Source of the DNA: an uncultured Candidatus Bathyarchaeia archaeon
GTDB lineage: Archaea > Thermoproteota > Bathyarchaeia > Bathyarchaeales > DTEX01
Length of the DNA: 64,000 bases
Assembly (NCBI GenBank): GCA_964508155.1
Contig: CAZDRE010000001.1
Coordinates: 69,174-133,173, forward strand
Reading direction: 5' to 3'
The notes below the pieces were generated by a model. That model did not search any database and was not told the origin of the DNA. It saw nothing but the letters and a program-made list of their open reading frames with translations. Made by a program: the position numbers and the translations under genes. Shown here piece after piece: positions 59,588 to 64,000 of this stretch. Each line of letters begins with the position of its first letter. Within the stretch, counting starts at the first letter, position 1.

Positions 59588-60526
59588 CTAGCTGAGTCTT
59601 CTCCTAACTGATTCAAGCGCCCTCCCCATCCTCCTACTCACCAACTCCTTAATTAAGCCCCTAGTCGAGGTTAACCTTTCGAGGGCTGAATTCCAAGCTC
59701 CGGACTGAACGGGAGCGTGGGCGATAACCGTCCTCTCCAAAACCAATGCATCTTCAACTGGGCAGACTATCCTGCATGCGCCGCAGTATATGCAGAAGTA
59801 ATCGTTAACCTCAACCCTACCATCATCGGAGACCTCGAGGACCCCAGGTATCGGACAGACATCAACGCAGTCCCTACATCCATCCGGGCACTTACTCCAG
59901 TCTATGCGGATCCTACCTGAGAATATCTTCTTGACTGTTATTGCATTCTCTGGGCATTTAGCCTCGCATAATCTACATCCAGGGCAATGATCCAGATCCA
60001 CGTCTATTCGAACCGAACCGCCGTTCCATTCGACCTTGATGAGGTCGAATGGGCATGCCTCTTGGCATTCAATGCAGTTCCTTGGACACTTAGATGAGTC
60101 TATCTCAACTCCACGCATCAATTCTGGGAAGCTTCCCTTCTCTATGACGGGGGATTTCTCCTCCCCATCAATGATCAGCTTCAAGGCTCCTACGGGGCAT
60201 ATGGTGCTACATATCCCGCAGAATGAGCATTTCTTCTCATCGATGCTGATCGATGCGTGGCTTAACCTTTCGCCCTCAACCCTTGTAGGCTTTATTATCT
60301 CTATTGCCTCCTTCGGGCATGCGGCCTTGCAGATCTCGCATCCAATACATCTACCCTTCTCGAGAATCAGAAGGTATCTTCGAGTGTAGAGTGTCCGGCT
60401 CACCTTTAGGTGCTCATCAGTCTCAGTTCGGAGTAGCTTCATCACCATACATTTATCTCTCCAAGCCGGATTTAGATAAATGAGCTCAAGCCATACATGA
60501 CGGTTTTTAAAGTATTCATTCATCAT
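59588..60526 (-). CDS. Polyferredoxin-like protein (about six 4Fe-4S motifs)
   Basis: 312 aa with repeated CxxCxxCxxxCP motifs (CIGCEICKAACP, CSFCGICSTICP, CPGCRLCEAKCP, CIYCGACRIVCP and others). Confidence 0.8.
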   Translation of the reverse strand: MMNEYFKNRHVWLELIYLNPAWRDKCMVMKLLRTETDEHLKVSRTLYTRRYLLILEKGRCIGCEICKAACPKEAIEIIKPTRVEGERLSHASISIDEKKCSFCGICSTICPVGALKLIIDGEEKSPVIEKGSFPELMRGVEIDSSKCPRNCIECQEACPFDLIKVEWNGGSVRIDVDLDHCPGCRLCEAKCPENAITVKKIFSGRIRIDWSKCPDGCRDCVDVCPIPGVLEVSDDGRVEVNDYFCIYCGACRIVCPVEDALVLERTVIAHAPVQSGAWNSALERLTSTRGLIKELVSRRMGRALESVRRRLS

Positions 60527-60695
60527 ACAGACTCATATCTTTTTTGGAAGACTCCAAAACAGCCAAAACTCGATTGGGATTCAAATCGCCAATTTATGAA
60601 CTTTATAAGGGAGGTTTTCATGGTGCCATGAAGAGATCGTCAGAATCAGAGATTTGGATTTGTGGTGGGGCCGGTCGGATTTGAACCGACGACCT

Positions 60696-60726
60696 CTACC
60701 CGATACGGGGCTTAAACCCCGCATCT
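60696..60726 (-). other. tRNA-Trp intron 3 (31 nt, 43/44 junction)
   Basis: Perfect central helix ACCC/GGGT with bulges GT|A and AG|A. The inner hairpin GATGCGGGG/CCCCGTATC is 9 bp. Confidence 0.75.
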
Positions 60727-60732
60727 ACGGGT

Positions 60733-60792
60733 TTCTTCAAGCTCCAGAACCTCATCATTCCCATGATGGGTCTGCAAACCCGTATCTGCATT
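60733..60792 (-). other. tRNA-Trp intron 2 (60 nt, canonical 37/38)
   Basis: The anticodon stem ACGGG/CCCGT serves as the outer helix. The central helix CTCC/GAAG has 3 of 4 pairs. The bulges are AG|A and AA|A. Confidence 0.7.
60737..60791 (-). ncRNA. Box C/D-like guide element embedded in tRNA-Trp intron 2
   Basis: Perfect AUGAUGA at 60752-60758. CAGA at 60771-60774 and UUGA at 60737-60740 are degenerate D'/D boxes. AUGCAGA at 60785-60791 is a weak C box. The 9-nt guides at 60776-60784 and 60741-60749 are perfectly complementary to the tRNA exons. Confidence 0.4.
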
Positions 60793-60812
60793 CTGGAGCC
60801 CGTCGTCATGCC

Positions 60813-60844
60813 GTTCCAGCAGGCCGCCGCATGGGCAAGCCGTT
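60813..60844 (-). other. tRNA-Trp intron 1 (32 nt, D-loop, after position 16)
   Basis: Helix TCTA/TGGA (one G.U) is flanked by bulges GC|A and AC|G. Removal yields D-loop AGCGGCA. Confidence 0.7.
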
Positions 60845-60886
60845 GCTAGACTACGGCCCCCAAAGAATTGTTTAATCCAGCAGCTC

Positions 60887-60960: not shown

Positions 60961-61081
60961 GGCTGCCGGCCATAGGGCGCGGGAACCACCCGAACCCATT
61001 CCGAACTCGGAAGTTAAACCGCGCTCCGTCCCTAGCGGTAGTGCAGTCTTCGGCTGCGCGAAGCTAGGGAAGCCGGCAGCC
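60961..61081 (+). rRNA. rrf: 5S ribosomal RNA
   Basis: GGCTGCCGGCCATAGGGCGCGGGAACCACCCGAACCCATTCCGAACTCGGAAGTTAAACCGCGC...GAAGCCGGCAGCC. Helix I pairs GGCTGCCGGC with GCCGGCAGCC. The loop C/E signatures CCGAAC and GAAGTTAA are present. Confidence 0.9.
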
Positions 61082-63257: not shown

Positions 63258-63413
63258 CAGAGAAGACTATCCCCCTAGCCCTTAAAAATGAAATGGATTT
63301 AAATTTTAATTCCAAATCCAGAATTATTGGCTAAGACTGCCGAAGGGGACAAAGATTTATTCAGAAAATTATATCATTATGATCTTAATGGGGGGTATTT
63401 TTTGATTCATAAA

Positions 63414-64000
63414 ATGAGACGCGCCGCTATTCTAGTCATTCCTCTTTTAGTCTTAATCTCGCCGTATCTATGGGTGAAAACCTCCTATGCGCTTACAGTT
63501 AAAGTTTCAGGCAGAGTTGTAGATGAAGACGGCTGCCCATTAGAGGACGTTAAGGTTGAAGCGTACGCCTACGATGAGACGTATGGAATTGAAGTTCACA
63601 TTGGACGGGCTTGGACTGATCATAACGGCTCATTCAATATGAAATTGAGCGTCGGGAGGGAATACACGCTTAAGTTCATAAAGAGCGGATATGCCGAAGC
63701 AAGCAAGAAGATAAGCGTGGGCATATACGGAACTGGCAGAGTTGATCTGGGCAACATAACCCTTCTTAGGTCTATAAGGCTCTTCTCGACAATCCTAAGC
63801 CTATCAGCAGACTCAGGAGAGACCATCTCGCTTCCATTCCGCATTATCAATGTAGGCGGAAGAGAAGAGATTATTGAACTTGAGGTTTCCAGTCCACCGG
63901 GATGGACTACCAGAATCTTAGATCAAGCTGACCGCGAAGTTAGGAAGATAAAGATATCATCGGGTGGAAGCCTAAATCTACGATTAGAAGCTTCGATTCC
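63414..64000 (+). CDS. Secreted/surface protein with carboxypeptidase-regulatory-like Ig fold (3' end beyond window)
   Basis: Not in the ORF track because it runs off the edge. Reads MRRAAILVIPLLVLISPYLWV (signal/TM), then LTVKVSGRVVDEDGCPLEDVKVEAY..GSFNMKL..YTLKFIKSGY, then a second beta-rich repeat. An alternative in-frame TTG lies at 63402. Confidence 0.6.
   Translation, partial: MRRAAILVIPLLVLISPYLWVKTSYALTVKVSGRVVDEDGCPLEDVKVEAYAYDETYGIEVHIGRAWTDHNGSFNMKLSVGREYTLKFIKSGYAEASKKISVGIYGTGRVDLGNITLLRSIRLFSTILSLSADSGETISLPFRIINVGGREEIIELEVSSPPGWTTRILDQADREVRKIKISSGGSLNLRLEASI

Follow-up and report, generated by a model that had tools for sequence, protein, structure and literature searches.

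A probable guide RNA in an archaeal tRNA-Trp intron

The tRNA-Trp intron of Haloferax poses a known dilemma between guiding and splicing. Intron-borne guides of this kind are reportedly found in Haloferax volcanii and, as sR50, in Pyrococcus, through work attributed to Omer in 2000, Clouet d'Orval in 2001, Bortolin in 2003 and Singh in 2004. The 2004 study by Singh et al. reportedly assigns U39 to the C'/D' motif of the Haloferax intron and C34 to its C/D motif, the guide working in trans as either a second precursor or the excised intron. Here we analyse a tRNA-Trp(CCA) gene in a stretch of 64,000 nucleotides (the window) from an uncultured Candidatus Bathyarchaeia archaeon. An initial annotation had proposed that the middle one of its three introns is a box C/D methylation guide for positions 39 and 34 or 35 of its own tRNA. 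The core of that proposal is supported by conservation across the phylum, by covarying guide arms and by a kink-turn (K-turn), and its terminal boxes are not. We judge, with a probability of roughly 0.7, that the middle intron is a reduced, one-K-turn ortholog of the Haloferax and Pyrococcus guide, with C39 and C34 as putative targets.

Passages of PMC3326292, PMC4090602 and PMC7994747 describe the Haloferax-type guide. In a part of Danan et al. 2012 (PMC3326292), the tRNA-Trp intron of Sulfolobus solfataricus is presented as a very stable and very abundant circle of 65 nt, with two short complementarities, to positions 34 and 39, and without consensus C/D boxes. A section of PMC7668247 records Cm34 in tRNA-Trp of S. 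acidocaldarius. An engineered guide, BMG1, has an intact C'/D' motif and a 4-bp stem in place of the terminal C/D motif (Wang, Yang and Ye 2022, PMC9670817). With Sulfolobus Nop5/fibrillarin, both substrates of BMG1 were methylated in vitro, and the authors ask whether natural guides partly without C/D motifs exist in archaea (PMC9670817). A paper on L7Ae RNA immunoprecipitation sequencing does not mention the tRNA-Trp intron (PMC5539422).

The intron in the window shares with the euryarchaeal guide its host gene and canonical intron position, the order of its parts (guide to 39, D', C', guide to 34) and the placement of N+5 on 39 and 34. In both, the duplexes take in intron bases, so the substrate would be a precursor, and L7Ae, Nop5 and fibrillarin are encoded. 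In contrast, the Haloferax intron is ~105 nt long and this one 60 nt, the terminal box C is absent here, what may be left of box D overlaps the splicing helix, C stands at position 39 in place of U, and the host gene has two further introns. BMG1 resembles the intron in consisting of one K-turn plus two spacers, although BMG1 has a defined terminal stem, whereas none is robust between the intron ends here and closure is only presumed. The tRNA-Met intron of Nanoarchaeum equitans (Randau 2012, PMC3491384) is likewise a stable tRNA intron with partial C/D features, but it belongs to another tRNA and has other boxes, and a two-armed design on the anticodon arm is not described for it. No boxes are reported in the passages of PMC3326292 on the S. 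solfataricus intron, whereas we see an internal K-turn (NNGA ... RAUGA) in the introns of a family designated f54. These introns align with the window intron over the full model and have the same core, and GAGA follows a 12-nt spacer in 5 of the 6 sequences. Family f54 appears to be the Sulfolobaceae.

The tRNA-Trp gene and its middle intron

The elements discussed below are these, in transcript order; all are on the minus strand.

60663..60860 (-), tRNA-Trp(CCA) gene: a 198-nt pre-tRNA with three introns and an encoded 3' ACCA
60793..60803 (-), 5' exon, positions 27-37, ACGGG CUCCAG: anticodon CCA at 60796-60794, predicted target C34 at 60796
60733..60792 (-), middle intron: 60 nt long, in the canonical site between positions 37 and 38
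60785..60792 (-), 5' end of the intron, AAUGCAGA: holds AUGCAGA (60791-60785), not a K-turn strand
60775..60784 (-), guide 1 (putative D' guide), UACGGGUUUG, i.e. UACGGGUUU(G): directly 5' of D'
60771..60774 (-), box D', CAGA: its G and A would form the tandem sheared pairs of the K-turn
60770-60759 (-), 12-nt loop between D' and C', CCCAUCAUGGGA
60760..60770 (-), C-stem of the K-turn: CCC (60770-60768) with GGG (60762-60760), loop AUCAU
60752..60759 (-), box C', A-AUGAUGA: AUGAUGA itself at 60758-60752
60741..60751 (-), guide 2 (putative "D" guide), GGUUCUGGAGC: 3' of C', 10/10 positions paired
60733..60740 (-), 3' tail of the intron, UUGAAGAA: bulge-helix-bulge (BHB) partner and D-like UUGA (60740-60737)
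60726..60732 (-), 3' exon, A38 and C39-U43 (also A44, provided that the third intron is 3' of A44): predicted target C39 at 60731

Every element named in the initial annotation, the 12-nt loop included, was found at its assigned place on the minus strand. Excision of 29, 60 and 31 nt leaves a 78-nt RNA that ARAGORN folds as tRNA-Trp(cca). The 29-nt intron lies in the D loop, the 60-nt intron after position 37 and the 31-nt intron in the variable region. Short repeats make the borders of the first and third introns ambiguous, and moving the boundary of the middle intron by one (38/39) yields an identical mature tRNA. The unspliced gene was missed by both ARAGORN and Rfam, and no C/D family was called at the locus, where the only Rfam hits were a weak, spurious one resembling tmRNA and, on the opposite strand, the adjacent 5S rRNA.

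Conservation and covariation

A BLAST search of the gene against 40 relatives found the anticodon arm and middle intron in 12 families of the order, with identities of 71-84%, and tRNA-Trp orthologs are present in 38 of the 41 relatives. The first and third introns are gained and lost among these relatives, and the 37/38 intron stays. Thirty orthologs were extracted, of which 28 were aligned (alignment A1) to build a covariance model, R1; searches covered the window's own phylum, Thermoproteota. Of 201 Bathyarchaeia genomes, 171 have a single R1 match each; among the 121 of good quality the figure is 113. Full-length matches occur in 193 of 301 Thermoproteota genomes from many other classes, including complete genomes of many other families. 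After the addition of 75 distant examples, 100 sequences were aligned to the model (alignment A2), and the counts given below refer to this set. Its introns have a median length of 60 nt (range 51-73).

Covariation, which the initial annotation had named as a check on its proposal, is seen in both arms and in the K-turn. The score in A2 is 0.199, compared with 0.084 +/- 0.005 in shuffles, none of which (0 of 500) reaches it, and at most 0.061 when the partners are slid. Because helix 2 lies outside the covariance model, it had no influence on the fit of the alignment. Within the order alone, covariation was uninformative because the arms are almost invariant there, and wider sampling was needed. 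Among 200,000 shuffles of the intron, none contained 9-mers complementary to both junctions; either complementarity alone arises at a rate of ~8e-4.

The internal K-turn

Across A2, a D' box of the form NNGA is followed directly by a short C-G stem, whose loop is unconstrained, and then by a 3-nt bulge (R-A-U) and G-A. In the window, the bulge corresponds to A60759, A60758 and U60757, and G60756 and A60755 of C' would form sheared pairs with the A and G of D'. The GA/UGA signature of a K-turn is found in 98 of the 100 orthologs, and D' conforms to NNGA, with its GA, in 98. All 100 have [GA]AUGA, for which [GA]AUGANGA is the usual form in Bathyarchaeia. The first position of D' pairs with the sixth of C' in several combinations (CG 74, AU 7, UA 3, UG 3, GC 2), and the second position of D' covaries with the fifth of C' (UA 15, CG 13, AU 11, GC 9), forming a non-standard pair otherwise. 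The CC/GG C-stem, which is paired at a rate of 96%, also occurs with UA and GC as compensatory pairs, and its loop is free to vary in length and sequence. Judged by these patterns, D'/C' with its C-stem is a proper K-turn of the kind expected for the internal motif of an archaeal box C/D small RNA (sRNA).

Conservation of the boxes in orthologs was a further check named at the outset, and it separates them: D' and C' are conserved, the terminal C box is not, and the D-like box is inconsistent. The alternative that AUGAUGA serves in an 8-bp hairpin, CAUCAU/AUGAUG, also raised in the initial annotation, does not extend beyond the closest relatives (L001-L003), and this hairpin is not conserved.

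The putative guide to position 39

Guide 1 pairs at 9 of 9 positions (60784-60776) with 60726-60734, which are A44 to A38 and the last two intron bases. Its N+5 base, G60779, pairs with C60731, which is C39, and its N+1 base, G60775, is unpaired. Position 39 is always opposite N+5 of guide 1 in A2, and N+1 is unpaired in 90 of the 100 sequences. Compensatory changes are found both at the intron end (i-1, UA 53 and CG 18; i-2, UA 71 and AU 7) and in the tRNA itself (position 42, CG 52, UG 25 and UA 6; position 43, AU 60, UA 7 and UG 7).

The introns of one family, f39 (L191 and L198-L200, with complete genomes of ~1.6 Mb), retain the K-turn and a guide 2 (GUUUGGAGC) that makes G.U pairs, and guide 1 is not recognisable in them. 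The C34 arm seems to be under the strongest selection, as guide 2 is universal and guide 1 is often degenerate.

The putative guide to position 34

Guide 2 (60750-60741) pairs with 60799-60790, which are G31 to G37 and the first three intron bases. Nine of these base pairs are exact (60749-60741 with 60791-60799), and the tenth is G60750.U60790; both 9-bp complementarities originally noted are therefore exact, and the second extends to 10 bp by this G.U pair. Within the arm, G60744 pairs with C60796 (C34) and G60745 with C60795 (C35). At least 8 of the 10 positions are paired in 99 of the 100 relatives, and position 34 is opposite one constant guide G in all of them. The arm also covaries with the start of the intron (i1, AU 87, CG 9 and UA 2; i2, AU 50, GC 13, UA 11 and CG 9); i3 is paired in 63 of 100, and i4 is unpaired. 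In 55 sequences the N+1 base of this second arm faces G30 as a G.G mismatch. Both duplexes begin at N+2 and are 9-10 bp long, as is expected of the antisense elements of box C/D sRNAs.

The methylation register of this arm depends on its spacer. The distance from C' to N+1 is 12 nt in 81 of the 100 sequences and 11 nt in the window, and a C-to-D' spacer is not definable because the C box is absent. With a 12-nt spacer, the eighth position from C' is also N+5 from the spacer end and faces C34. The shorter spacer occurs in L001-L004, which form the window's genus, and in L021, from another genus of the same family (GGAGC-UUGAAGAA). Other order-level relatives are one base longer (for example, GGAGC-U-UUGAAGAA), and the register there gives C34. 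The N+5 arithmetic of the initial annotation was right, giving C39 for the first arm and, for the second, C35 by a literal count from UUGA or C34 with the register moved by one. The target of guide 2 is likely to be C34, not C35, because of the 12-nt distance from C' found elsewhere, the N+2 start of the duplex at G31 and the homology with other lineages; the C35 option would reflect the spacer that is 1 nt shorter in L001-L004 and L021.

In 13 of the 100 introns (L139, L141-L146, L152, L153, L159, L160, L172 and L173), A36 faces A, C or G in the guide (UUCAGGAGC, UUCCGGAGC, UUCGGGAGC). This mismatch is conserved and lies two positions away from the predicted methylation site.

Intron ends and splicing

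The intron tail appears to be foremost the BHB partner of C32-C35, with UUGA at best a D-like remnant overlapping the splicing helix. The central BHB helix joins GAAG (60738-60735) to C32-C35, with one A x C34 mismatch in the window. The four bases before the last two of the intron are GGAG in 33 sequences, GAAG in 25 and forms such as GGGG or AGAG in the others, all of them complementary or nearly so to CUCC; the helix is perfect in the 33 of 100 relatives that have GGAG. A 5' bulge, A36 G37 / A60792, and a 3' bulge, A A / A38, can be drawn (the slash marks the splice site). GC at 60789-60788 is able to pair with GC at 60742-60741 as the inner BHB helix, and the recurring intron start AA[AU]GC fits such a helix with the GC at the end of guide 2.

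UUGA has no C-box partner. It is not out of range as a box D, because other C/D-like loci in this genome use NUGA (AUGA, GUGA, UUGA). In some relatives the D-like box stays in register with C' where the splicing helix has moved (CGGA-G-AA vs GUGA-AG-AA), and in L022 an insertion sets GUGA apart from the splicing helix. A terminal C/D K-turn closed by a stem, as in box C/D sRNAs, was not found.

Several candidates for the missing box C were considered. AUGCAGA, which the initial annotation listed as a weak C box, has G3-C4 where G3-A4 is needed, so that C replaces the sheared A, and this segment differs in both length and sequence among the 100 orthologs. A shifted box, CAGAUAC, could be combined with UUGA as a K-turn, or as a kink-loop in a circle, but it leaves a spacer of only 7 nt and would consume the guide bases for G42 and U43, and the place of its GA is not fixed in relatives. 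A C box supplied by the exon, with G26-A27 of AUGACGACGG opposite the D-like box in cis, is topologically possible and was dropped; the tRNA body is invariant, and several lineages have another intron between G26-A27 and the target.

The predicted folds of 60725-60803 (-) favor a hairpin of guide 2 with the 5' junction over the BHB conformer, at -32.9 vs -22.4 kcal/mol at 37 C and -11.5 vs -4.2 kcal/mol at 70 C. This hairpin is the minimum free energy fold and hides the 5' splice site, and neither guide helix is compatible with a splicing-competent fold. Since the BHB is ~10 kcal/mol less stable at 37 C, splicing of the middle intron should need rearrangement or protein help.

A possible mechanism

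We infer binding of L7Ae, Nop5 and fibrillarin, methylation of C34 and C39, action in trans and a substitute for the terminal motif. L7Ae would bind the internal K-turn (D' CAGA, the CCC/GGG stem and C' AUGAUGA), and Nop5-fibrillarin would assemble upon the L7Ae-bound K-turn. The 5' arm could then pair with the 3' splice junction of a pre-tRNA-Trp and present C39 at N+5 from D', and the 3' arm could pair with the 5' splice junction, from G31 to intron base 3, and hold the wobble base C34 in the catalytic register. The substrate would be the unspliced precursor, because both duplexes cross splice sites. As in Haloferax, guiding may take place in trans, either by a second precursor molecule or by the intron once excised and probably circularised. 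The terminal C/D K-turn is probably replaced by the BHB and anticodon helices of the precursor or by circular closure, and, given the competition between the guide-2 hairpin and the BHB, proteins or pairing in trans would have to resolve guiding versus splicing. The wider proposal, that Bathyarchaeia and most Thermoproteota have a natural single-K-turn guide whose terminal motif gave way to precursor helices or circular closure, is tentative, and we give it not quite even odds.

Weighing the explanations

A number of observations count against a guide function as we have described it. No heptamer bearing GA lies at a constant distance, 10-13 nt upstream of D', in the 100 orthologs, which leaves the terminal C box without a conserved counterpart. 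The reading of UUGA as a D box is ambiguous: among 95 sequences, 44 have NNGA directly after a 12-nt spacer, compared with 9-28 at other offsets; some families have GUUA or GUAA in this place or lack a tail altogether, tails ending in GGAA have nothing comparable, and the D-like box overlaps the BHB helix. A terminal stem of the intron ends is not robust (-2.07 vs -1.85 +/- 0.13 kcal/mol in permuted pairs, with 11 of 300 as low). Guide 1 is degenerate, with fewer than 7 of 9 pairs, in ~29 of the 100 lineages, the base opposite A36 is mismatched in the 13 introns noted above, and the 11-nt spacer of the window's genus makes its C34/C35 register ambiguous. Finally, covariation is proof of pairing only, and the same signal is expected from purely structural helices.

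This last point bears on the possibility that the K-turn, with L7Ae, and the exon-intron helices only steer folding of the precursor and guide no methylation, for example by keeping the 5' splice site hidden until introns 1 and 3 are removed, or by stabilising the excised circle. A guide-2 hairpin that forms in cis, is ~10 kcal/mol more stable than the BHB and buries the 5' splice site would suit such a role, and so would the absence of a terminal C/D motif. However, control of folding leaves unexplained the exact N+2 start of both duplexes relative to the K-turn boxes, the length of 12 nt that the spacer on the C' side has in 81 of 100 sequences and the match of N+5 to 39 and 34, which the Haloferax homolog methylates. 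Two helices that are mutually pseudoknotted and both compete with the anticodon stem would also make an odd folding aid, and Cm34 is present in tRNA-Trp of a Sulfolobus species, as a section of PMC7668247 records. We consider this explanation unlikely. More doubtful still is a decaying relic, in which guiding was lost with the terminal C/D motif and the rest is kept through overlap with splicing signals and the tRNA body. The degenerate C box, the inconsistent D box and the loss of guide 1 in ~29 of 100 lineages could be read as decay, and Haloferax remains viable without its intron (Joardar 2008, as related in a passage of PMC4090602). The K-turn and guide 2 nevertheless lie outside the BHB motif and are found in 98-99 of 100 sequences throughout the phylum with compensatory changes, and pairs with intron bases i1-i3 are not expected of a relic. 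The motifs NNGA and UGA are short and common, and the AUGCAGA and UUGA boxes are weak, so one might suppose that box-like words and complementarities arose by chance within an ordinary intron. The shuffle test and the conservation and covariation in 100 genomes exclude this, and its probability is negligible. The reduced, one-K-turn guide is the reading that we prefer; the activity of BMG1 speaks for its feasibility, and the Cm34 of S. acidocaldarius and the stable S. solfataricus circle lend it indirect support.

Protein machinery and other C/D-like loci

The genome encodes a Nop5-fibrillarin operon, with PF01798 and PF01269 adjacent on C14 (38801-40233), and L7Ae (PF01248) on C19 and C2. A loose box C/D pattern (RUGANGA, 10-13 nt, NNGA, 2-12 nt, NUGANGN, 10-13 nt, NUGA) matches the genome at 10 loci, whereas the genome reversed or complemented gave no match. 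In several of the 10, AUGA, GUGA or UUGA replaces CUGA as box D, and the strict consensus is found at one locus only (C2, near 43344).

One loose match in the window, at ~63523-63585 (+), is within an open reading frame (ORF; 63327-63998) and may be coding sequence. Another string with C/D layout, at 60398-60446 (-), shares the strand of the tRNA-Trp gene and lies 217 nt downstream of it: GUGAUGA, 12 nt, CUGA, GA, CUGAUGA, 10 nt, GUGA. It has a weak Rfam match to sR10 (18.6 bits, E 0.25) and overlaps an in-frame AUG GUG AUG AAG early in a 312-amino-acid ORF (59588-60526) with a ferredoxin-type motif, CIGCEICKAAC. Three congeners (L003-L005) showed no such pattern at the corresponding position, and the string may be a chance occurrence or a genome-specific sRNA overlapping the gene start.

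Other introns and neighboring genes

Intron positions within the tRNA-Trp gene differ between families, and the 37/38 intron is constant. Many relatives have an extra intron just 5' of G29 that is not in the window's gene, which has the D-loop and variable-region introns in its place. Its carriers include L009-L013, L015, L016, L018, L019, L021, L024 and L027-L030 within the order, and L174, L176, L178, L181, L184, L185, L190, L195 and L202 in other classes. The 3' end of this intron is strikingly constant across classes (...CGUUAA/GGGCUCCAG, the slash marking its end). A lone 5S rRNA gene (60962-61081 (+), Rfam 79.7 bits) is divergent from the tRNA-Trp gene and ~100 bp apart from it. For a neighbouring gene, the nearest public records belong to metagenome-assembled genomes of hot-spring Bathyarchaeia/Bathyarchaeota.

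Implications

For the window alone the finding is ordinary: judged by homology, the middle intron is the expected ortholog, and its one-K-turn form is common to most of the phylum. If the reading is true, the single-K-turn intron would be a natural counterpart of BMG1 and would answer the open question of PMC9670817. Introns of this type would offer naturally occurring examples in which to test how far archaeal Nop5-fibrillarin depends on the box C/D architecture, and the sequence rules gained here can be used to annotate introns that ARAGORN and Rfam miss. The known euryarchaeal system would extend to Bathyarchaeia and much of Thermoproteota, where it has a single K-turn and lacks the terminal C/D motif. 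Cm34 on tRNA-Trp helps to stop the CCA anticodon from reading UGA. An intron that places Cm34 on its own tRNA would be performing one of the small number of functions known for tRNA introns.

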